The notes beneath the pieces were generated by a model. It did not search any database, was not told where the DNA came from, and saw nothing but the letters and a program-made list of their open reading frames with translations. A program made the translations under genes and the position numbers. From the sequence record OQ555404.1: a DNA stretch of 64,000 nucleotides, one strand, 5' to 3'. Shown here one piece after another: positions 19,560 to 52,054 of the stretch (its first letter is position 1; each line of letters starts with the position of its first letter). The DNA is from Escherichia phage vB_EcoP_HC-25922.

Positions 19560-20528
19560 ATGGGTGCTGGAGGTTTTCGAAAGAATACTGGTAGAAACAA
19601 CACCACACTTCCGTACAATGTTGGTTTTCTAAACAATGTGCAGGATACAGAAACTTACAACGTTGCCGTCTATGATGAACTACAAAAAGTTAGTACAGCA
19701 ACTAATCAGATGTTTCAAGCTATTGATGAAATACATGAAGAAATTGATGTTAGGATTAAAGCTCTTAATGCAATGAATCTTCAATTTGATGAACTTGAAA
19801 ACAGAATTACTACAGAGATCGAAACAGCTATTGCTGATATTCAAACACAGATGGGCAATCTGTCCACTGAAGATATTTGGGATAATTCAGTACAACCGCC
19901 AGTTAAGCTAGAAAGTTCTATGGCAGGGTTTAAAACTTCTATAGAAGGTAATGAGGTTAAGATACAATCTGTTGAGGGAATCGTAAACCAGCAGGGAGAG
20001 GAAATTGGCTTAGTTCAAACAGAGATCTCCAACATTAACAGCAGTCTATCTTCTTATATGAAGCTATCTGACTACGAGGCTACGTGGGGGGTTAACTCAA
20101 ATGTCAACGGTAGGTATGCTGGTGTCAAGTTAACTAACAACGGAACAAACAGTCAATTCCAAGTAACAGCTAACAAATTTATTGTTGGTGATGGCAGCTC
20201 TGGTAACACACCTTTTGTGTTTGAGGGTGGTAGGGCTAGAATGGAGTTCGCTGACATAAAGAACGTCAACATCACAACTGCTCAGATTGCCAACGCTAGG
20301 ATCCAATGGGCACAGATTGATAACGTATCTATCTCCAATGCTCAGATTCAGAATTTATCAGCGGATAAAATCACTGCTGGTTCTATGTGGGGTTCTAACT
20401 GGAGACTTACTGTTGGTGGTGATTTTGTTATGGGTGGTACAGGTGGTTCTCAGTTGTGGATGAATGGTAATAGAATAGATTTTTATGATGGGAGTGGAAC
20501 TCTTCGCATAAGAATAGGGAGTTGGTAA
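19560..20528 (+). CDS. hypothetical tail-associated protein
   Basis: ATG 19560 with GGAGG RBS (the track start 19548 is TTG); coiled-coil N-terminus, beta-rich C-terminus. Confidence 0.45.
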   Translation: MGAGGFRKNTGRNNTTLPYNVGFLNNVQDTETYNVAVYDELQKVSTATNQMFQAIDEIHEEIDVRIKALNAMNLQFDELENRITTEIETAIADIQTQMGNLSTEDIWDNSVQPPVKLESSMAGFKTSIEGNEVKIQSVEGIVNQQGEEIGLVQTEISNINSSLSSYMKLSDYEATWGVNSNVNGRYAGVKLTNNGTNSQFQVTANKFIVGDGSSGNTPFVFEGGRARMEFADIKNVNITTAQIANARIQWAQIDNVSISNAQIQNLSADKITAGSMWGSNWRLTVGGDFVMGGTGGSQLWMNGNRIDFYDGSGTLRIRIGSW

Positions 20529-20529
20529 C

Positions 20530-21564
20530 ATGGCATATGGAATATGGACACGCCCGGTTGGTCCGGGTCCAGCGGCCCCTGCTGATATTTATATTGATAG
20601 TGGTAGCACATTCCCTCAACTCAGAAATAGGGTCAGTGGGAATTTCTCTTTTAGTGGAAATACCTGTGACTTGCCTATAAGTGGTTGGGATGGTAGTGGT
20701 CAGATAGTTATAGTTCCAACAGGGTCTGTTGTTTGGGAGAGATACATACCTCCCAATTTAACATCTGATGTATATTGGATAACTGACATATCTGTTATTA
20801 ATAACTCAACCTTCAGAGTTACTATGGACTATAATGTAAACGGTTGGATATTTGATATGGCTTTTAATGTGTATCAAATATGGCCTAGAGCTAATAGGAA
20901 CTATGGAATCACATTCTCCAACTCTGCTGACTATTTCTCAATCTCTGATTCTGGAGTTGTTGGTCAATGTATTTGGGCTTGGGAAGGTGACATAAATGGT
21001 TCTCTTCAAATACCAGATATTGGTGGTTTTGATATGAGCCGAGCAACTGTCTACGCAAATTGGAGTAACGGAGGAGCAGGGCTTCTATACAATCCATCCA
21101 ATAGGGTTGTTTATGTGTACCAGAACAGGTCTCATGATAATGGTAACACAAACCAAACAGGATCCATTGGCGGTGTTAGAATTGCCGTCTTCTGTGATGG
21201 TTCTGGAGTACCGACTCATAATGGAGGTTTAAATATCTTTTCTCCAAATGGGTCTCAGTGTGTATTTTCTACATATAGAACCCCTTTTAGTGTTGAGGGA
21301 TTTATGCCTATGAGTGGTGGTAACACATCTCTGGCCTATCCAATGATACCACTATCTTACGGAGCCGGAGCAATAAGAGGCAGGACTAGTGGTTGGTATT
21401 TTCAACACACAAGATCTCACATGATGAATGGCTCTTCTTTCAGCACAGGTTTCGGTAGGATGATTTACTCTTGGAGTGACCAATACGATTTAGGAGGAGG
21501 TGGTGCTCTCGGATTAAGCATTCCGATATTAGATGCTAGGAAAATATTCAGGAGTATACAATAA
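20530..21564 (+). CDS. hypothetical tail fibre or receptor-binding-like protein
   Basis: 344 aa, G/S/N-rich and beta-rich; tightly packed after the previous gene. Confidence 0.45.
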   Translation: MAYGIWTRPVGPGPAAPADIYIDSGSTFPQLRNRVSGNFSFSGNTCDLPISGWDGSGQIVIVPTGSVVWERYIPPNLTSDVYWITDISVINNSTFRVTMDYNVNGWIFDMAFNVYQIWPRANRNYGITFSNSADYFSISDSGVVGQCIWAWEGDINGSLQIPDIGGFDMSRATVYANWSNGGAGLLYNPSNRVVYVYQNRSHDNGNTNQTGSIGGVRIAVFCDGSGVPTHNGGLNIFSPNGSQCVFSTYRTPFSVEGFMPMSGGNTSLAYPMIPLSYGAGAIRGRTSGWYFQHTRSHMMNGSSFSTGFGRMIYSWSDQYDLGGGGALGLSIPILDARKIFRSIQ

Positions 21565-22380: not shown

Positions 22381-23433
22381 ATGTCTCTTTTCGGTTCTGC
22401 TCCTAAATCTAAGACTACGGTAGCTCCGTCTTCTCAGGTTGATGCTCTTCTGAAACAGATTGTAGCAAATGCTCAGGCTATGAATCAAAACGATCAAGGT
22501 TTTATTAATCGTAACATAGCAGGTTTTAATGAAAATCAAACAGCAGCTCTTTCTAATTTAGCAAATTCTAACACACTCAACCAACTCAGTCAGATGTACA
22601 CCCCTAGAACTCAACAAGGGTTGGACCAGATGAATGAGTTGGCTCAGAAATATCAAAACCTAGTTAATAAGGGTGGTATCTCCGCTCAAGATGTTAATAA
22701 TTTTAGCTCTGGACTGAATAACTCTGCATTAGCTAAATCCACAGGTAAAGCTGCTGCTAATGTGTCTCTTGGTAATGGCTCTGATTCAGGTTCTCTGAGA
22801 CGTGCTGCTGCTCAAGGTGCTGCTCTTTCTTCAGCGAATACAAATCTTTCTCGTTCTATTCAAGGTAAGAATATGGGTGTTAACACTCTTCTGAATAACA
22901 ACTCCTATCAGCAAGGTTTGCTCAATGCTCAGTCTGGTTTAGCAAATCAGAACCTGAATCTAGGAGCTGCTGGGGTACAAGCTGGTCAACAGGCAATACA
23001 TAATCAGCTCACTGCTGGAAACCTTCAACAGCAGCAAGATCAACTCCAAGCTAACAACAATTGGGAGAATGCTATTGGCAGTCAGCAGTATGGTTGGAAT
23101 CAGCTTAACAATCAGCTTAATGTATTAAACTCAGTAAGTCCAATGGCTGGGTACACTATTACTAATAGAGGTGCTGCCCCTAATGCTTCACAACAAATCC
23201 TTGGTGCTGGGGTTACTGGTCTTGGTATTGCTGGTCGTCTAGGTGCTTTTACCCCTAATCAGCAAACTACTAATGCTTGGAACTCATACAATGCTTCTGG
23301 AGGTCAAGCTGGGATGGCTGGTCCTATGATTGGCGGCTCAAACCTGTCTCAACAGAATGGTCAGAGCAACTGGTTATCTACCGCAGGAAGTAATATCTTA
23401 GGTGGTGTTCTAGGAGCCTTTGGAGCAAATTAA
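22381..23433 (+). CDS. Q/N-rich low-complexity virion protein (paralog 1)
   Basis: 350 aa; N-terminus MSLFGSAPKSKTT; Q/N/G-rich; paralogous to the next gene. Confidence 0.45.
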   Translation: MSLFGSAPKSKTTVAPSSQVDALLKQIVANAQAMNQNDQGFINRNIAGFNENQTAALSNLANSNTLNQLSQMYTPRTQQGLDQMNELAQKYQNLVNKGGISAQDVNNFSSGLNNSALAKSTGKAAANVSLGNGSDSGSLRRAAAQGAALSSANTNLSRSIQGKNMGVNTLLNNNSYQQGLLNAQSGLANQNLNLGAAGVQAGQQAIHNQLTAGNLQQQQDQLQANNNWENAIGSQQYGWNQLNNQLNVLNSVSPMAGYTITNRGAAPNASQQILGAGVTGLGIAGRLGAFTPNQQTTNAWNSYNASGGQAGMAGPMIGGSNLSQQNGQSNWLSTAGSNILGGVLGAFGAN

Positions 23434-23442
23434 GGAGGAGCT

Positions 23443-24411
23443 ATGGCTTTATTCGGTGGTGGGAGTAGCAAGACTACTTCTAAAATGACAAGACCTGACT
23501 ACATTCAGTCCTATATTGATCAGTTGGTCAATCAGGTTAATAACACTAGTTCAGGCGATTATGTGTATCGAGAAAATGTTGGACTTAATCAAAACCAGCA
23601 AGAAGCTCTGAATAATCTATCACAATCTGGTGCATTAGGTGCACTTTCTTCTCAGTATATGGATGCTGCTCAATCTGGCTTAGGTTATCTAGATAATGCA
23701 TACTCTGGATATAACAACCTGTCTAACTCTGGTCAAATCACTGGGGAACAGATTGGTGCTCTTGCAGGCCAGCTCTATGACGATGAGGCTGTGCAAGCAG
23801 CTATTGCAGCGAATAATGAACAAACCCAACAGAGTTTGGCTAGGAATGCACTTCCTCAAATCTCTCAGCAGTTTGCTGGTCAGCAAGGTTCTGGTGCACG
23901 TATGGCTAAATCTTTTGCTCAGGGTGATGCTCTGAACCAGATGCAGAACACAGCAACCAATATTACTAATAGTGCTTATGACTCCGCTCTAACTCAAGCA
24001 CAGAACATTCTTTCTGGTAATAGACAAACACAAGCATCTGCTTTAGGTGGTTTATCTAACATTGGCTCCAATCTTGCTAATCTAGGAAACCAAGCTGGTC
24101 AGTTATCACAACAGCAAATGATGAATCAGTGGAATGCAGGACTGCAACAGCAGCAACAACAGCAGTCTGATTTGAACAATGCTTATGAGAATGCTCAGAA
24201 TGCCGCTAATTGGGGTTGGCAGGATATTAACAATCAACTAGGTGCTGCCGGGGTTCTTAATGGAGCTTTAGGGACAACCACAACTACTAAAACATCTGGT
24301 GGTAGTGGAGGCTTCCTAGGTGGTGCTGCTAGCGGTGCTGCTGCTGGTTCAGCTTTTGGCCCTTGGGGTGCTTTAGCTGGCGGTGTTATCGGTGGATTAG
24401 CTAGCTCTTAA
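23443..24411 (+). CDS. Q/N-rich low-complexity virion protein (paralog 2) with Gly-rich C-terminus
   Basis: 322 aa; N-terminus MALFGGGSSKTT; poly-Q; C-terminal GGFLGGAASGAAAGSAFGPWGALAGG. Confidence 0.45.
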   Translation: MALFGGGSSKTTSKMTRPDYIQSYIDQLVNQVNNTSSGDYVYRENVGLNQNQQEALNNLSQSGALGALSSQYMDAAQSGLGYLDNAYSGYNNLSNSGQITGEQIGALAGQLYDDEAVQAAIAANNEQTQQSLARNALPQISQQFAGQQGSGARMAKSFAQGDALNQMQNTATNITNSAYDSALTQAQNILSGNRQTQASALGGLSNIGSNLANLGNQAGQLSQQQMMNQWNAGLQQQQQQQSDLNNAYENAQNAANWGWQDINNQLGAAGVLNGALGTTTTTKTSGGSGGFLGGAASGAAAGSAFGPWGALAGGVIGGLASS

Positions 24412-43538: not shown

Positions 43539-43766
43539 TTAGATAACCTTGTGCTTATAGATGTTAGGGTTGTAGTAATGCAACCAGTTTATGTATTGCT
43601 TCTGTTCGAGGTAGTGCCTGCAATCATGACAAAAAGCATGACCCAAACCTGTTTCCTCGTTCAGCTTGAAATTGATAAGAAGCTTCTGCTTTCGACAGAA
43701 GCTACATGCTTTAGTGGGCTTCACGTAATGCATCCCAAGAGATTGGATATATTTTACGAAGCTCTT
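43539..43766 (-). CDS. Cys-rich small protein (zinc-finger-like)
   Basis: CSFCRK...CHDCRH cysteine pairs; start moved to an internal Met to limit overlap with thyX. Confidence 0.35.
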   Translation of the reverse strand, partial: KSFVKYIQSLGMHYVKPTKACSFCRKQKLLINFKLNEETGLGHAFCHDCRHYLEQKQYINWLHYYNPNIYKHKVI

Positions 43767-44361
43767 CATCAATGGTTGATGCGAACACTCGTACTTCGTA
43801 CTGAGCATGGTCTGACAGTCGCTGACGACACAACTCTGACCAACCATATAGAGAACCGGTCCATACCCACTCAGTGATCATACCCTGAGGTAATACGAAT
43901 CGAGCTTGTTCTGGAGCAATGAACTTAATCAATTCATCATACGACTCAAGAGCTGTTTCATATGCTCGGTTAATCAGAACTAGTGCAGAGTTTTGTGCTC
44001 CTGTGGTGAGGAGATTCCCTGCACCTGCATGGAGGTCCGAAGGTCTTTCAAAAATCTCTTTAGGGATGAAGAGTTCAACTGCTCCATCTTTATACCGCCG
44101 GGACATTTCGTTCCACGAGAATCCAACTTGATGCTTGCCCAGCTGTCTCGCAATTGCGATTGGCGCTTTGCATCGGAAGCTAATTGTCGGATGGCGGAAT
44201 GGTGTGACATGCTTTTCTCTGGCAAGGAACTTGATAAGGCGTTCATCTCGTTCATTTAACTCTCCTTCACGAGTAACCCCAAAGGAAACTCGAGCTGCAT
44301 TAACAACAGATTTATCAGAACCCATTGCTTCAATTAGTGTTGCTTGTAATTGTTCGTTCAT
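43711..44361 (-). CDS. thyX: FAD-dependent thymidylate synthase ThyX
   Basis: ThyX signature RHPT...SWNEMSRRY (RHR...S motif). Confidence 0.8.
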   Translation of the reverse strand: MNEQLQATLIEAMGSDKSVVNAARVSFGVTREGELNERDERLIKFLAREKHVTPFRHPTISFRCKAPIAIARQLGKHQVGFSWNEMSRRYKDGAVELFIPKEIFERPSDLHAGAGNLLTTGAQNSALVLINRAYETALESYDELIKFIAPEQARFVLPQGMITEWVWTGSLYGWSELCRQRLSDHAQYEVRVFASTIDEELRKIYPISWDALREAH

Positions 44362-44375
44362 CCTTGAATTCTTCC

Positions 44376-44591
44376 TTAGTAATGAATCTTTTTATAAATC
44401 AGGTTGCTTCCACTTTCTGTTTCAATCCCTTTCTGGATTGTAATCTTAGAAGCACCGGTATTAGCAATTTTTAAAGCTCGTTTAAAGCGGCGAGCCTCTC
44501 TCCGTGTTGTGTATGAGGAGAAGCTAGGGATTGTACTATCAAAATTAAACCACTTAACTACCCAAAAAGTAATCCAAGGTTTCTTTTCCAT
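44376..44591 (-). CDS. small protein, family A member 1 (W..W...TRxEAR...KxxY family)
   Basis: 71 aa; shares W-rich N-terminus, TRREAR and C-terminal KKIHY with two other ORFs. Confidence 0.45.
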   Translation of the reverse strand: MEKKPWITFWVVKWFNFDSTIPSFSSYTTRREARRFKRALKIANTGASKITIQKGIETESGSNLIYKKIHY

Positions 44592-44592
44592 A

Positions 44593-44868
44593 TTAAATAC
44601 CTTTCAGAGCTGTATCTAAAAACGCACGGAGGTTTGATTCAGTTTGCATACCGGACAAGCTGTAGTGAGCACCACTGTTCATGTTAGGAACCACAAAGGC
44701 TGGGATACTGCGAACACCATATTCAATGGCTCGCTCTCGACCATCACCTTCAGAGATATTTACTTCTTCAACTTCTACGTTGTAATCAGCTACAACTTTC
44801 TTAAACACAGGAGCCATAGCTGCACATGGAGCACAGGAATTACTATAAAACTTAATTACTTTACTCAT
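44593..44868 (-). CDS. thioredoxin/glutaredoxin-like protein
   Basis: CxxC active site (SNSCAPCAAM); start set at MSKVIKFY with AAGGA RBS. Confidence 0.65.
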   Translation of the reverse strand: MSKVIKFYSNSCAPCAAMAPVFKKVVADYNVEVEEVNISEGDGRERAIEYGVRSIPAFVVPNMNSGAHYSLSGMQTESNLRAFLDTALKGI

Positions 44869-45058
44869 TTTATTCCTTGTTAATAAACAGATTGATATGA
44901 CGCTGGGTAGCAGGAACAACAATAAAAGACTTATACTGCCCTTTTGCTAAATCATGAGCAATCTTCTTTGTCTGACCAAGACCCATCACACAGCCACTAA
45001 CGATAATGGCATGTGCTTGTAATTCTTCAGGTAGGTTTAGTTTCACTCTTTGGGTTCC

Positions 45059-45497: not shown

Positions 45498-46073
45498 TTA
45501 GTAAGACACATCACCACTGGAGTGGGACATGTTGCTCTTGACGAAGTAACAGAACTTGCCAAGACCTTCATTAATTTCTTGAAGCATACTCTGGTCCACT
45601 GGATAGGTGCACAAGTCTGAATCAAACTCATCCATCTTCTCAATGATACACATAAGAGTCATGCACATGTCGGAAAGCATACCGTCCATGTCAAGATCAG
45701 CGTTACCTTCTCGGAACCAAGCATGACCTAAATAATTACTAGCAGTAGCATCCACTTTAACACAATGAAAGCGCATACGCTCTGCTATTCGGTCGCCTGC
45801 CTCACGAGCATAATCTTCTAGTTCATCGAACATACCATGAACACCTTGGAAACCAGCTCCAGAGACGTTCCAGTGGTAGTTCTTTGCTTTGATGTGTAGA
45901 AGTTCAAGGTTAGCTTGCACACCACACAAGATGTGTTCTAAACTGTTACCGCTAATCAGTTTATTCATTCCCTCAAGACGAGAGATAGAAGAGTCAGTAG
46001 TAGAGAATGGGTTGCTAGAACCCACTCGTGTTAGTTCTGGTAAGTCGAAGACATTATTATGCATTAGGTGCAT
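45498..46073 (-). CDS. Dps-like ferritin-superfamily protein
   Basis: Dps signature KNYHWNVSGAGFQGVHGMFDELEDYAREAGDRIAERM (HWNV.G..F...H..FEE...D.IAER). Confidence 0.7.
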   Translation of the reverse strand: MHLMHNNVFDLPELTRVGSSNPFSTTDSSISRLEGMNKLISGNSLEHILCGVQANLELLHIKAKNYHWNVSGAGFQGVHGMFDELEDYAREAGDRIAERMRFHCVKVDATASNYLGHAWFREGNADLDMDGMLSDMCMTLMCIIEKMDEFDSDLCTYPVDQSMLQEINEGLGKFCYFVKSNMSHSSGDVSY

Positions 46074-46456: not shown

Positions 46457-46672
46457 CTAGTAATAAACCTTGCTGGATATGAATCCAGCACTGTTATGGA
46501 TATTTTCAATCCAACGATGAATCTCCACCTTTTCAGCGATTCCTAAAGCTTTTGTAGCTTTTATAGTTTTCTTAGCAAGACGAGCCTCTTGTCTTGTGTT
46601 GAATAATTGAATACAATCACCACCAAGAGCTTTGTTAGCCCATTTAGTACGAACTGCCCATAATTTATCCAT
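46457..46672 (-). CDS. small protein, family A member 2
   Basis: 71 aa; TRQEAR and C-terminal SKVYY conserved with members 1 and 3. Confidence 0.45.
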   Translation of the reverse strand: MDKLWAVRTKWANKALGGDCIQLFNTRQEARLAKKTIKATKALGIAEKVEIHRWIENIHNSAGFISSKVYY

Positions 46673-46884
46673 TAGTAATGTACCTTTCCGCTGATATAGA
46701 AACGACCTGATTTAAAGTCTTGAGCTTTGTGGATAGTGATCTTATTAATTGTGCTTTCACAACTTAATAAGAACTTCTTATGAGCGCGAGCTTCTTGACG
46801 GGTATTCCTAATACCCATTGACTCTGTACCACTGCTCCAGTGAATACGAACTACCCAACGTCTTTTCATTGTTCCAAACTCCAT
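46672..46884 (-). CDS. small protein, family A member 3
   Basis: 70 aa; TRQEAR and C-terminal GKVHY; tandem with member 2. Confidence 0.45.
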   Translation of the reverse strand: MEFGTMKRRWVVRIHWSSGTESMGIRNTRQEARAHKKFLLSCESTINKITIHKAQDFKSGRFYISGKVHY

Positions 46885-47080: not shown

Positions 47081-47614
47081 TTATACACCCTTAGATGCAA
47101 CTACACCATTACTGCCGTTGTATCGACCCTTCACTGCATAAGAGTCATCACCAGCGTGAGAGTGTTCGAACATAACCATTTGACCAACACGCATCCCAGC
47201 ACGAACTCGTAAGCTATGATTATGGGTAACGTTATGAAATTCAAAGGTTAGTTTACTGCTGTTAAACCCTGCATCAGCCCAACCAGCATGGAGGTGGTTT
47301 AAACCACAACGAGCCATTGAGGAGCGAAGTACAAACAGGCTTGAGATGTTATCTGGAAGGTTAAACTCTTCCATTGAGTGCGCTAAGAAGAATTGCCCCG
47401 GAGTGATAACAATACCATCTTCAGGGATTTTTACTTCTTTCCACTTGAGGTTTTCTTTAGCATCAATGTCAACAATTCCGTCAGCCTGTTCTTCAACAAG
47501 GATAGTATCACCAATACGGATATCCACGCTAGCAGCGTTAACATATTTATGCTCCGCATCTAAAAAGCCATTATCAATAACGCTGTGTAATTCTTGAGAA
47601 CCTAAAAGACTCAT
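47081..47614 (-). CDS. dCTP deaminase (dUTPase superfamily)
   Basis: VDIRIGDT and GWADAGF...LTFEFHN...GQMVMFE match dCTP deaminase/dUTPase signatures. Confidence 0.75.
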   Translation of the reverse strand: MSLLGSQELHSVIDNGFLDAEHKYVNAASVDIRIGDTILVEEQADGIVDIDAKENLKWKEVKIPEDGIVITPGQFFLAHSMEEFNLPDNISSLFVLRSSMARCGLNHLHAGWADAGFNSSKLTFEFHNVTHNHSLRVRAGMRVGQMVMFEHSHAGDDSYAVKGRYNGSNGVVASKGV

Positions 47615-49074
47615 GAGTTTCTGTTTCCTTGTACAGATGATGCCAAATTATTAATCATGTTACGAGCTGTTTCACGAGATAGTGTAACACCTGCTAAGTT
47701 GTTATGAAGCTCACCAGATAGCTCACGAGCAGCAGCTCGAAGTTCTGTACCAAGTGTAGTATCGGAGTGAGCCAAACCATTACGACGACTATAAGGTCGA
47801 GGAGCTTCGTTAGCGTCATTAGCCAATGATGCAAAACCAATATGAGCAGCTTCACGAGCCGCTATAGTTGACACTCGATCTTCCGTAGGGGTTGGCAAAT
47901 CACCAACTTCTACACGTTCTATATCACCAGCACGTAGACCCTGAACGACTGAGCTTACTGTTTCCCATGAACGACGAGAACGCTGTAAATCACCCATTGA
48001 CGGAGAAGAAGCAGGTCGAACAGTTACTCCACCTGTATCATGAGTGACATGCCATGTACGAGTATCCATTCCAGAAGAGCGTGCACTACCAAAACTGCCA
48101 GTGAAAGTGTCACGAGGTGCCATTGTAGGAGGAACTGCGAATCTTTCCTGTTGCCAAGAATCGCGTCTGTTAGTTCCCGGAGTCCAAGGCTGCGTGATTG
48201 CTTCAGCACCTATAGTGGTTAATCCGCTAGACCATTCTGTCTGTAGGTTAACTTCCTCGTCCAGATAACTACGACCCCTTTCCTGAGGAATGTTTAATAT
48301 AGTTTCCATCATCTTCAGGGTATAATGACGACGCTGATTCTGATATAAATTTACACCAGCCATAGGTCCAACTAAATCACTAATCAGGTGAACTTCTGGC
48401 TCACCGAAAGCTCCCATTGCAAGGTGCATATATTCGATAGAACTGCTATAAACTGCAACAGTTGCTTCAGGCCACTTTTTGTGAACATACTTCATTTCAC
48501 GACTAGATACCACAGGAATGTCACGAGTGTATGACATTGCAAACAAACCTTCGTTTGACACATACATGTCATCAAGAGACATGAACCCCTGACAGATCAT
48601 AGGAAAGCGACGGCTTAAAGTATCCATATCCAAAGGTAGATTAATCATCATCTGGATTTTAACTTGATCAATCTCAATTTCCAGAATCTCTTGGAAAGTG
48701 AAAAGTGATTCAGTATAGGTTGTTCCACTGATAGGCTGAACTAGTCGAGATGTAACTTGAAGCCCCTTACTCTCTGTCCAAGACAAGAAGTTGTCAAGGA
48801 ATAGTGCAGCATTACTTACGTTAGCAGGGCTGTTTTCCTGACGAGTGTTCCAACGGAACCCTCCTTGAACTAGGAAGATATCAACATCATTCGGAGTTCG
48901 ATTTTGGAAGAACGTATCACGGATAGCACCACCTGCAATGACAGGATAGATACCATCAGGGACTACGTTATCTCTGATCAGATTGCGAATCAGATCAAGC
49001 CCTACGCTGAGGGCTTCTCCTTCTTGAAGGTTTAATTCAGACAATGGAATCTTAATCATTTCTACATTTTCCAA
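47611..49074 (-). CDS. Pol-beta-superfamily nucleotidyltransferase (CCA-adding enzyme or poly(A) polymerase-like head) with low-complexity C-terminal region
   Basis: AGGAIRD plus 9 aa plus DVD matches the GGxVRD...DxD head motif of tRNA nucleotidyltransferases; C-terminal 200 aa S/T/R/A-rich. Confidence 0.5.
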
Positions 49075-49610
49075 TTTAGAGATGGGGGATTCTTATAATC
49101 AAATCCAGCCATTTGACAAAGACACATGTAAACTTTAACTGTCAAGTTAACGTCTTGCTCACAATAGGTGAACATGTCTTCAGTGAATGCGTCCCATGCC
49201 TCCTCCTGTTCTCCATAATCTCCTTTCAGCTCCCCAAGAAACTCGCCCCATTGTTTGAGGCCGTGACCACGAGGGCCATGTCTAGGGTCGCCTTTGGGGT
49301 ATTCTGGACTATCACCAATACGGTCAGGCTTGAGATATCTACTCAGGCACAAAGTATCGAAGACGTTAAAGCGAAAAGGTATCACATGAGAATAAAACTT
49401 AAACAAAGCAGGAAGGTCAAAATCAATAATATTGTGACCTATTACTACATCAGCTTCTTTCAGTTTGTGTAGTGCTTCTTCAATTTGGTGAGGGCGATAC
49501 CCCCACCGCTCTCCAGATAATACATCAAATATCCAGATACACCAGACATTCTGAATACCATCATAGAGATTATCCCCCTCGATATCAAACGCATACAGTT
49601 TCTTTACCAC
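49062..49610 (-). CDS. 3'-5' exonuclease (DnaQ-like proofreading domain), separate gene
   Basis: Exo I FDIEGD, Exo [10 protein letters not shown], Exo III YCEQDV. Confidence 0.65.
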
Positions 49611-51394
49611 GGACGTGCCTCCCCTTCTTGTGCAAGTAAGGAAGCTGCATCCTCTCCATTGGTAACGGTAAAAGGATGCTCTTCATCAACTTCATGATCT
49701 TCTCGTTCTACAAGACGACCTGTTTCATTGATGTATTTGGTATAGCAAACCCCTGTCTGTCCATAGTTACGCTCTTTGAGCAGTCGTATGATTGACAAGT
49801 TTTTACCTAACCCATCCGCTTGTTTATTACGTTCAAAACCAATAATACACTGACACCAGCGCATCAATGAACGTGAACCAGTAAACTGTACTTCTTTAAC
49901 CTGACCACCTTCTTCGTGGGGTGCACCACCTGCCGGAGCGTTCAAGTGAGATAATACAAAAGCAGTGAAGTCTAATTCCTTACACATACCAGCAAGCTCT
50001 GAAGCAATCTTGCTGATTTCTGTGTTTACCTCAGATGGGGTTAAGTGAGATACCAATGCAGTGATGTTATCAAGAATGATAAATTTACACTGATTCTCAA
50101 CTACCCAAAAGCGAATACACTGCTTAATGTCTTCCCACTCGTTCTGCCCAAAGTTGTCATACAAGAAAAACTTATCAGCGTATCGAAGTGCTTCATCTCG
50201 TAGCTGGCTTTCTTCGTACTCAACATCTGGTCGGTGGAATGGAATAGATGCAGATTTACCTGCAATGTTCTTAACAGACATGCCTACCTTCTCTTCCAAG
50301 AAGAAGCCACCACCATTAAAACCATGCTCAAGGCAAAGCCATGCTACTAGTTCGTGTGCGATTAAGGTTTTACCTGAACCAACACCACCGCCGATTGCAA
50401 CCATCTCTCCCCAACGAATACCAAAGGTCATGTCGTTAAGAGTTTTCCACGGATAAGGAATACCCCATTCCGCTTTCTTCAGAGCATCTTCGAGGCAATC
50501 AAAAACTGTAACAGCTCCAGCAGGGGATTCCCGCTTAGCTGAATATTTCAGATTGTTGAAAAGCTCTTGACCTCTCCCTGCAAGTAACATGTCGTTTGCA
50601 TCTTTGATTTCCTTTTCTTGTCCGTTATAAGTGAACGTACCTTTTGGAATCCTTGCAAACTTAACATGCGGGTACAGAGAACGACCCTTAGTTAAAGCAA
50701 TCTCACCTGCATCATCATTGTCCATGCAGAGTACAATCTCCTCGAAACCATTAATAAAATCACGGTTTCTTGATAATACAGAAGAGATTGAACCTGCACC
50801 GAACGGAAGAGAGACGCAAGCAGGTTTGATGTTAGTTGCGTTTGTAAACGCGGTAAGTACGTGGAACCCAGACATACAAGAGAGAGGATCTTCAAAGATG
50901 AAGAGTTTCTTGTTGTATACGTCACCACGTTGTGCTTGAGCCATACCAAACAAGTCGGCTTCTTTCACATTACCTACATAATAGAACTTCTTGCTGTCTA
51001 GAAGTTTTACTTCATATCCAACAATGTTCCCATCACGTTCACGAGGGAAGAAGTAGCTGTCAGGAGTTTGACCATCTGTTTGGCTTAAACCGATACGGCA
51101 TCCATAACGTTCAGATACAGCTTTAGGGATTAAGCGACGAGTCAACTCTCCCTGAGGAAGCTCTAAGCAATCGTCTAAGACTTCTCGGAGTTCTTCAGGG
51201 GACAGCTCTTTCTTTTCATTAGGAGTGGGCGTCGTTCCTTTCTCGAAGATTTCATACGCACCACATCTGTTACATGAACCCCACTCCTCACCGGACTCTT
51301 CATTTCGGAAGAGAATCATGTGATTGCGGGTCTTATCACGACCATGAGAGATACACTCTTTACAGCCCGTGTCTCCCAAAATGATCTTTGACAT
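49604..51394 (-). CDS. primase-helicase (zinc-binding and TOPRIM-like N-terminus, DnaB-like helicase C-terminus)
   Basis: N-terminal Cys cluster CKEC...CNRCG; [16 protein letters not shown]-like acidic motif; Walker [10 protein letters not shown]. Confidence 0.75.
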
Positions 51395-51429: not shown

Positions 51430-51636
51430 TTAGTAAAACGATCGTATTTCTTCCCACACATCATCTTGCAAGTTTCTAAAACCCTGCAAGGTTTGCTTTG
51501 TTCTGTGAATAAATTCTTCAGAGTGCTTATCAGGTGTGAGCATACTGACAAACTTTTCATAGCGATTAATCTTCCACCGCATCTTCAAGTAGTCAGATTC
51601 CAGCTTTCTTAACTTCTGCCTGTCAGTTACTGTCAT
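51430..51636 (-). CDS. hypothetical small protein
   Basis: Internal start ATG 51636. Confidence 0.35.
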   Translation of the reverse strand: MTVTDRQKLRKLESDYLKMRWKINRYEKFVSMLTPDKHSEEFIHRTKQTLQGFRNLQDDVWEEIRSFY

Positions 51637-52054
51637 CCTTCTCACCTGCCAGATATGCTGTCCAGTCACCAGATTCAACCAGAACATCTTGTTCTTCGTC
51701 GATGTGATAAATCCACGCTTCCACAGTTTCACCGCTGTCCAATAATACTGGAATCAGTGTACGCTTGTAAAAGGTGTATGGGTTATCATTACCACGATGA
51801 CCTTCCAGACCGTCATACGGACCTTCCAGACCAGCTTGGGTTGTTTCAAAGACTTCTACACGAACAGGCTTACCGTTGCTGTCATGCTCCAAAGATACAC
51901 TTGGGAAGTATGCTGTGCAATACTGATACAGGTTACAGTTGTTTACTGTCCACCCTTCACCAATAGACACACCACCTGCACGAGCATTGATAGCGTGGTT
52001 GTGTTGACCTTTACGAAGAGAACCATACGTTGCAACTAATACTTTATCAGACAT
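51623..52054 (-). CDS. gamma-glutamyl cyclotransferase-like (AIG2/GGCT family) protein
   Basis: N-terminal VLVATYGSLRKGQHNH matches the YGSL(R/K).G motif of GGCT/AIG2/YtfP enzymes; AAAGGTAA RBS. Confidence 0.65.
   Translation of the reverse strand: MSDKVLVATYGSLRKGQHNHAINARAGGVSIGEGWTVNNCNLYQYCTAYFPSVSLEHDSNGKPVRVEVFETTQAGLEGPYDGLEGHRGNDNPYTFYKRTLIPVLLDSGETVEAWIYHIDEEQDVLVESGDWTAYLAGEKDDSN

Follow-up and report, generated by a model that had tools for sequence, protein, structure and literature searches.

The locus considered here raises the question of what a phage-encoded nucleotidyltransferase (NTase), with a catalytic head of the kind found in CCA-adding enzymes and a long lysine-free tail, might act upon. 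The gene lies on the minus strand of a 64,000-nucleotide stretch of DNA from Escherichia phage vB_EcoP_HC-25922 (OQ555404.1), which was analyzed as a whole and is hereafter called the window. Over the 20 kb surrounding the gene, identity with Escherichia phages IME267 and vB_EcoP-101114UKE3 is 99.1-99.2%; both are Suseptimaviruses and fall within the subfamily Gordonclarkvirinae, which comprises the phiEco32-like C3 podoviruses. We propose, with moderate confidence, that the protein is an active member of the Pol-beta superfamily, a nucleotidyltransferase that acts on polynucleotide 3' ends without a template, and that it belongs to the replication and nucleotide-metabolism module of the phage. 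Sequence conservation and structural modeling support the homology of its head to those of the class II tRNA nucleotidyltransferases and the bacterial poly(A) polymerase (PAP), and suggest that it typifies a family of its own.

The gene is already annotated as a "nucleotidyltransferase" in RefSeq, in IME267 and in the BASEL collection, and earlier publications mention it; among enzymes of this known kind it is a divergent variant, with an unusual lysine-free tail. The open reading frame (ORF) at 47611-49074 on the minus strand exists as given in the preliminary description of this DNA. The true start, though, is almost certainly the ATG at 49059, which yields 482 amino acids, and not the TTG at 49074, because the ATG is used by every annotated relative and the N-termini of the homologues agree with it: M-[ILFY]-x-[IVLF] begins at residue 1 in every full-length homologue, that is, in the 32 sequence clusters described below minus four fragmentary ones. 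Residue numbers refer to this 482-residue protein, while the PHROG search was run with the 487-residue ORF that starts at TTG. The match to PHROG 12715 ("nucleotidyltransferase") is full-length (E 1.2e-165, profile positions 1-456 of 457) and spans residues 6-480 of the longer ORF, which correspond to 1-475 in the numbering used here. PHROG 1614 matches weakly (E 4e-6). The gene and the parts of its product are as follows:

47611..49059, minus strand: NTase coding sequence, 482 amino acids plus stop; the ORF, with its ATG start taken from homologue N-termini and the annotation in relatives, and the PHROG 12715 match
48631..49059, minus strand: catalytic head domain, residues 1-143, with a Pol-beta/PF01743-type fold
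48880..48933, minus strand: motif A, G43-D60, in which D58 and D60 are the metal carboxylates; sole match in the six-frame translation, with invariant residues
48688..48690, minus strand: E124, candidate third catalytic carboxylate, on a strand of the form [DE]-I-x-x-F; conservation, with the role assigned by analogy
48211..48630, minus strand: family-specific alpha/beta subdomain, residues 144-283; confident model and conserved residues
48469-48501, minus strand: R187-[DE]188-x-x-Y191-x-x-K194-K195-[WY]-P197, the family's own motif within the subdomain
47614..48210, minus strand: tail rich in R, S, A and T, predicted to be disordered, residues 284-482; pLDDT below 35 in a poor full-length model, and composition

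The catalytic head and its relationship to CCA-adding enzymes

The head carries the motif reported in the preliminary description, GGAIRD followed by nine residues and DVD, in the form G43-G44-A-I-R47-D48, TFFQNRTPN and D58-V-D60. The corresponding pattern, GG.[VI]RD.{6,12}D.D, matches once when the window is translated in six frames and not at all in 200 shuffles. Among 28 diverse members of the family, 27 are positive in a pattern test for motif A, and the residues equivalent to G43, G44, R47, D48, D58, D60, F62, Y115, I125, Q136, P153, Y191 and K195 do not vary. An acidic residue, aspartate or glutamate, occupies positions 124 and 188 throughout; at the former aspartate is found in 18 members and glutamate in 10, and positions 58, 60 and 124 are thus acidic in all 28. 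By analogy with the E-V-T-T-F strand of the class II enzymes, E124 would be the third metal-binding carboxylate. The head displays the hG[GS] turn, the DxD pair and the third carboxylate on the neighboring strand of a mixed beta-sheet that define the Pol-beta superfamily.

Sequence searches connect this domain to characterized enzymes chiefly through motif A. In a profile search against PDB sequences the top match was a CCA-adding enzyme (E 0.0017, via motif A), while a search with the single sequence returned noise only. The Kuravirus orthologues score 21.9-22.2 bits against PF01743 (E about 2e-4), just below the gathering threshold of 23, and 6 of the 28 members match this model at E up to 0.01; the N-terminal domain of the window NTase gives nothing against it even at E up to 10. 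The modeled head is, however, the structural equivalent of the PF01743 head domain. An AlphaFold2 (AF2) model of residues 1-283, computed from a diverse 27-sequence alignment that was built from an exhaustive hidden Markov model (HMM) search, reached a predicted local distance difference test score (pLDDT) of 87.9 and a predicted template modeling score (pTM) of 0.86. In fold comparisons this model scored highest with E. coli poly(A) polymerase I (3aql, 11.3), then with class II CCA-, CC- and A-adding enzymes (1miv, 4wby, 3h37, 1ou5, 9kma and 3wfo, 8.2-9.7), and at 7.9 or lower with TENT5, CdnE, terminal uridylyltransferases (TUTases), Pol X and others. At low rmsd the superposition on CCA enzymes took in only ~145-170 residues, which make up the head domain. 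A Foldseek search of the PDB recovered the same families (E 4e-5 to 1e-3), with TM-scores of only 0.3-0.4. The likeness to CCA-enzyme and poly(A) polymerase heads originally claimed for the protein is hence borne out by the profile match, the near-threshold PF01743 scores and the invariant carboxylates; the two grounds on which that claim would have been abandoned, missing carboxylates and a different fold, were both examined, and the carboxylates are in place and the fold is the expected one.

Outside motif A the protein departs from these families. We applied the published motif definitions (PMC2910056) to the 28 members, with E. coli Cca and PcnB as positive controls. According to that source, motif B (DxxRRD) recognizes the ribose, motif D (EDxxR) is the amino-acid template for CTP and ATP, and a poly(A) polymerase signature, [LIV][LIV]G[RK][RK]Fx[LIV]h[HQL][LIV], sits between motif A and the flexible loop (PMC2910056). 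Motif B is present in both controls and in 0 of the 28 members, the sole RRD of the window NTase being at residue 298 in the non-conserved tail. Likewise, both controls carry EDPxRxLRxxRF, and none of the 28 has a conserved EDxxR; the poly(A) polymerase signature, found in PcnB as LVGRRFRLAHV, is absent from all 28. Alignment of the family profile with Cca or PcnB by hhalign covered motif A alone. No helical neck, body or tail domain was recognized either, residues 144-283 being modeled as mixed alpha/beta and the remainder predicted to be disordered. Membership in the CCA-adding or poly(A) polymerase families proper, as entertained in the preliminary description, finds no support, given these absences, while its remark that the C-terminal part is unlike the usual neck and body of CCA enzymes agrees with the fold comparison.

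The class II tRNA nucleotidyltransferases (PDB: 1miv, 1ou5, 4wby, 3h37, 6ibp) therefore share with the phage protein the Pol-beta-type head, the GGxVRD...DxD signature and, on the strand that follows, a third acidic residue, whereas the phage protein has 36 extra N-terminal residues and a 55-residue insertion in the head, lacks motifs B and D and the helical neck, body and tail, and has instead its own alpha/beta subdomain and a disordered tail. In comparison with E. coli PcnB (PDB: 3aql) it lacks the poly(A) polymerase signature and motifs B and D, and its tail is not net basic. A stand-alone CCA-enzyme head protein, NP_344798.1 (PDB: 2la3), is bacterial, 191 residues long and devoid of a tail. 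The alpha/beta subdomain (144-283) has no match in Pfam or NCBIfam; besides its central motif, a [WYF]-[ST]-x-G-[LR] element at 276-280 recurs across the family.

These features are compatible with a mechanism in which D58, D60 and E124 would coordinate a pair of metal ions and the 3'-OH of a polynucleotide, thus activated, would attack an NTP or dNTP at its alpha-phosphate. Judged by homology, the most likely acceptor is an RNA 3' end, RNA being likelier than DNA. The product should be an extension by one or a few nucleotides, or a tail, and not a defined CCA, because neither motif B, which senses the ribose, nor motif D, which templates the base, is present. Specificity may be set by the alpha/beta subdomain, with Q136, P153, R187-D/E188, Y191 and K194-K195 as candidate determinants.

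The lysine-free C-terminal tail

The C-terminal region was first described as a low-complexity segment rich in S, T, R and A. Its composition is indeed biased, with R 11%, S 11%, A 10% and T 10% (G 8%) in residues 291-482, but it is not simple sequence, given an entropy of 3.4-3.6 bits as against 3.7-3.9 for the N-terminal domain; a search for tandem repeats and for Rfam matches in the tail found neither. The same segment contains 22 arginines and no lysine. The last lysine is K249, which leaves a lysine-free run of 233 residues, while lysine makes up 5.3% of residues window-wide. The tails of relatives, though barely alignable, are also arginine-rich, with 0-2 lysines. A full-length AF2 model from a shallow alignment of 23 mostly close sequences was poor (mean pLDDT 40.5), with the tail below 35 throughout.

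Among seven Suseptimaviruses the ratio of nonsynonymous to synonymous substitution rates (dN/dS) is 0.34 in the tail versus 0.09 in the N-terminal domain, which points to relaxed purifying selection on the former. Conserved islands stand out within it, among them RSRRSWETV and the last 21 residues, which are identical in these seven phages, and a conserved block of 20 residues aligns with RRTSFEEAL of Kuravirus. Insertions and deletions among the Suseptimaviruses are concentrated at residues ~300-320 (window about 48100-48160). This hotspot holds alternative segments of 12-24 residues, one of them 15 residues long as against LQAFNEETSRTVRGGVVGYNVQPHERP, and carries a deletion in phage 4E8. An origin of the tail as a frameshift or non-coding artefact was ruled out by the dN/dS of 0.34, the maintenance of the frame in seven relatives and the lack of a rival long ORF. 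On sequence and model evidence the tail is a genuine, selected extension, predicted to be disordered, with short linear motifs. This lysine-free, arginine-rich extension probably serves as a flexible tether that would hold the substrate or a partner protein via the short conserved motifs.

Lysine avoidance also occurs elsewhere in the window. A 344-residue protein of PHROG 1265 (20530-21564, plus strand) has one lysine and a lysine-free run of 337 residues, and the neighboring "DNA ejection proteins" of PHROG 4287 (22381-23433 and 23443-24411, plus strand) have lysine-free runs of 140-190 residues, so that the NTase tail shares this trait with putative virion or ejected proteins. Prompted by these proteins and by the proteomics of phage SU10, we considered an enzyme packaged in the virion and ejected with the DNA. 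This was rejected: the SU10 preparation was not purified on caesium chloride (CsCl), and a study of SU10 by cryo-electron microscopy and mass spectrometry lists gene products (gp) 20-24 as the only ejection proteins, which indicates that the NTase is not a virion protein.

Phyletic distribution and gene neighborhood

An exhaustive HMM search with the profile of the N-terminal domain against 1.84 billion representative proteins recovered 32 clusters only, and the family is therefore rare; a word-indexed homology search recovered close relatives only, and the exhaustive search was needed to reach the others. With tblastn the NTase was found in 97 phage records, 22 of which cover at least 80% of the protein at 87-98% identity; ~75 match at below 60% identity, and among the matches listed these lie at 31-33% and extend over only the first 60-70% of its length. 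Residues 1 to ~230 are common to the members, whose tails of 60-250 residues beyond this point are hardly alignable. A separate observation concerns PF26128.2, which is precomputed for most Kuravirus orthologues (P0025-P0068); the same proteins lacked it in our Pfam scan, and no match to it was found in the literature.

More remote homologues are found in other podoviruses. A Foldseek search of viral models retrieved many short phage proteins (170-220 residues) labeled "poly A polymerase head domain" or "nucleotidyltransferase" (E 1e-8 to 1e-4). By hhalign the family aligns through K-K-[WY]-P with P0096 (probability 96%, E 1.8e-9), whose tblastn matches in the phage collection are LUZ24-like proteins, and with gp11 of Ralstonia phage DU_RP_I (probability 82%, E 1.1e-5), and gp42 of Pseudomonas phage LUZ24 was reached by tblastn with P0096, not by direct alignment of the family. 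In DU_RP_I the gene lies between those of the primase and DNA polymerase I, and in LUZ24 it follows the exonuclease gene within the replication module. These short NTases (PHROG 1614; DU_RP_I gp11 and LUZ24 gp42; LKD16, LIMEzero and phiAS7 in BFVD) share homology past the head up to K-K-[WY]-P, whereas, at 170-320 residues, neither the N-terminal extension nor the head insertion is present in them and the long tail is mostly missing, and their genes, though in replication modules, are not adjacent to one for dCTP deaminase. Head-type NTases are thus recurrent residents of podovirus replication modules, and the searchable literature yielded no characterized example among them.

In the window the NTase gene is one of four that are tightly packed head to tail on the minus strand. 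The other three are:

49604..51394, minus strand: T7 gp4-like primase/helicase, first gene of the four-gene block; PHROG 239 (E 6e-175) and DnaB_C
49062..49610, minus strand: 3'-5' exonuclease subunit of the DNA polymerase; PF01612 (E 3e-5), PHROG 38876 and 403
47081..47614, minus strand: dCTP deaminase; PF22769 (E 1.6e-34) and the TIGR02274 equivalog at 107 bits versus a cut-off of 92.8

Four-nucleotide overlaps had been reported on both sides of the NTase gene. The one with the dCTP deaminase gene is real (ATGA), but the exonuclease gene is separated by a 2-nucleotide gap from the ATG start and would overlap by 13 nucleotides only with the TTG start. No convincing intergenic terminator was detected in the block, and promoter-like matches within it are no commoner than expected by chance. 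The order primase/helicase, exonuclease, NTase, dCTP deaminase is preserved in Nieuwekanaalvirus EP335 and Kuravirus LAMP, in two IMG/VR contigs of 82-88 kb whose members are at 27-31% identity, and in metagenomic contigs with a member at ~22% identity (the contig loci being L010, L011 and L023-L025). The earlier suggestion of co-expression with DNA replication genes is consistent with the tight packing, the lack of a convincing terminator and this synteny down to ~22% identity. In phiEco32 the cluster for DNA polymerase and nucleotide metabolism belongs to the middle class (PMC8948821), and the NTase gene is read here as a core middle-class gene of the phiEco32-like podoviruses, transcribed with those for the primase/helicase, the exonuclease subunit and the dCTP deaminase. 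An orthologous peptide was detected in SU10 lysate (PMC4281155), which indicates that the protein is made.

Several other features of the surrounding DNA were observed. The family A DNA polymerase is split, with an exonuclease subunit of 182 residues (49062-49610, minus strand) and a polymerase subunit of 615 residues (PF00476; 38679-40526, minus strand), the genes being separated by ~8.5 kb and some 20 other genes. A set for dTTP supply, all on the minus strand, comprises the dCTP deaminase (47081-47614), ThyX (43711-44361) and a thioredoxin (44593-44922); the dCTP deaminase also weakly matches a dUTPase model, and no dUTPase was seen in this stretch. Three ORFs of ~70 residues (44376-44591, 46457-46672 and 46672-46884, minus strand) appear to be paralogous, sharing T-R-x-E-A-R-x-x-K-K and a C-terminal K-[VI]-[HY]-Y, and two of them form a tandem pair closely downstream of the gene for dCTP deaminase. 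A protein of 191 residues (45498-46073, minus strand), called a "DNA binding protein" in other annotations, weakly matches the ferritin-like (Dps-type) model PF00210 (E 7e-8). On the other side of the block, a gene for gamma-glutamyl cyclotransferase (GGACT; 51623-52054, minus strand) is followed by genes for an ATP-grasp enzyme, an amidoligase, a COOH-NH2 ligase and a glutamine amidotransferase up to about 60000, a cluster predicted to form a peptide- or metabolite-modifying system; in a distant relative (L023), too, a GGACT gene is situated upstream of that for the primase/helicase.

Candidate substrates and functional significance

Several observations weigh against a template-independent 3'-end nucleotidyltransferase with an RNA acceptor. 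The likeness to characterized enzymes is limited to ~145-170 residues of the head, so that neither acceptor nor donor specificity can be transferred from them, and the window NTase itself has no match in the Pfam, NCBIfam and PADLOC scans. Catalytic activity is predicted from the conserved residues and the modeled fold. With motif B lost, either ribo- or deoxyribonucleotides could be preferred, and the steady place of the gene among those of DNA replication could equally mean a DNA or nucleotide substrate. The tail, finally, is a polyampholyte with a net charge of ~0 here and -11 in Kuravirus, which argues against a simple polycationic nucleic-acid binder.

It is the strict linkage to the primase/helicase, the proofreading subunit and the dCTP deaminase that keeps three alternatives alive. 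One is that the protein is a genuine CCA-adding or CCA-repair enzyme, which during infection would mend damaged 3' termini, either on host tRNAs or on the phage tRNA-Arg(UCU). Folds and profiles come closest to CCA-adding enzymes, and databases as well as the SU10 paper label the orthologues as class II CCA-adding enzyme-like. The absence of tRNA genes from the window, noted at the outset, was confirmed by search, but as an argument it is weakened by IME267, in which a tRNA-Arg(UCU) lies ~1.6 kb past the point where the window ends (66398-66470; L004 6396-6471). One tRNA-Arg gene is carried by the Gordonclarkvirinae (PMC9965538), IME267 and LAMP (20374-20446; L020) among them. Both of these genes, however, encode the 3' ACCA, so that de novo CCA addition would be unneeded; this, together with the occurrence of a remote homologue in DU_RP_I, whose genome has no tRNA gene, led us to reject the maturation of phage tRNA as the main role. 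Repair is further disfavored by the lack of motifs B and D in all 28 members, of the helical body and tail domains that bind the tRNA elbow, and of any match to the NCBIfam CCA equivalog, and E. coli, moreover, owns Cca. We consider repair unlikely, although no other rival seems likelier; on the motif evidence it is the weakest of the three survivors. Ranked behind it, and doubtful, is a pathway of DNA modification or of the nucleotide pool shared with the dCTP deaminase, in which the NTase might nucleotidylate a base, a nucleotide or an intermediate. Such a pathway would explain why Gordonclarkvirinae withstand restriction-modification (RM) strikingly well without known modification genes (BASEL-2, PMC11990801), and the same study speculates that the pair of dCTP deaminase and NTase signals DNA modification, perhaps with deoxyuridine (dU) (PMC11990801). 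The adjacency of the two genes is invariant, with translational coupling, and the loss of motif B leaves the use of dNTPs possible. On the other hand, the phage ThyX argues against a simple replacement of dT by dU, the Gordonclarkvirinae genomes are routinely sequenced, and the remote homologues of DU_RP_I and LUZ24 are not encoded beside a dCTP deaminase. Nor is any DNA-hypermodification pathway known to employ a PF01743-type NTase.

Next in order, and similarly doubtful, comes an enzyme of the replication fork whose targets would be DNA ends or primer ends, either terminal-transferase-like or primer-processing, in conjunction with the split family A DNA polymerase. Its favorable evidence is the recurrence of these NTases in the replication modules of three podovirus lineages, beside genes for primase, exonuclease or polymerase. 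Disordered tails with short conserved motifs are, in addition, typical replisome tethers. Against it, the fold scores favor the RNA-specific class II enzymes over the family X polymerases, the fingers, thumb and 8-kDa domains are lacking, and clustering in small podovirus genomes reflects the timing of expression as much as function. A signaling or protein-modifying NTase for host takeover or counter-defense, producing a nucleotide second messenger or AMPylating host proteins, appears improbable, since there is no PADLOC match and no agreement with the CD-NTase or defense profiles (cGAS/DncV-like), the GGxVRD signature marks the PF01743 lineage specifically, as opposed to the CD-NTase or MNT motifs, and the gene is a core syntenic component of the replication module and not a variable accessory. 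Least probable of all, in our estimation, is that this NTase and the short head-type NTases of podoviruses are replisome accessories that make or repair RNA 3' primer ends, for instance of the ACCA type, for T7-like machinery, with the tail docking to the exonuclease, the polymerase or the primase-helicase; this proposal draws only on gene context and on the T7 system. There the primase product pppACCA reportedly matches the tRNA 3' end, and tRNA is said to be able to prime DNA synthesis.

The Gordonclarkvirinae are common E. coli phages of broad host range and unusual RM resistance (PMC11990801), and the NTase is among their few core enzymes without an assigned reaction. Knowledge of its substrate would separate RNA repair or tailing from modification of DNA or the nucleotide pool and from an unrecognized replisome accessory. 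With regard to enzymology, the family appears from its sequences to provide a natural case of a PF01743-type head that operates without motifs B-E. The same substrate would also give a function to the uncharacterized head-only NTases found in the replication modules of other podoviruses.

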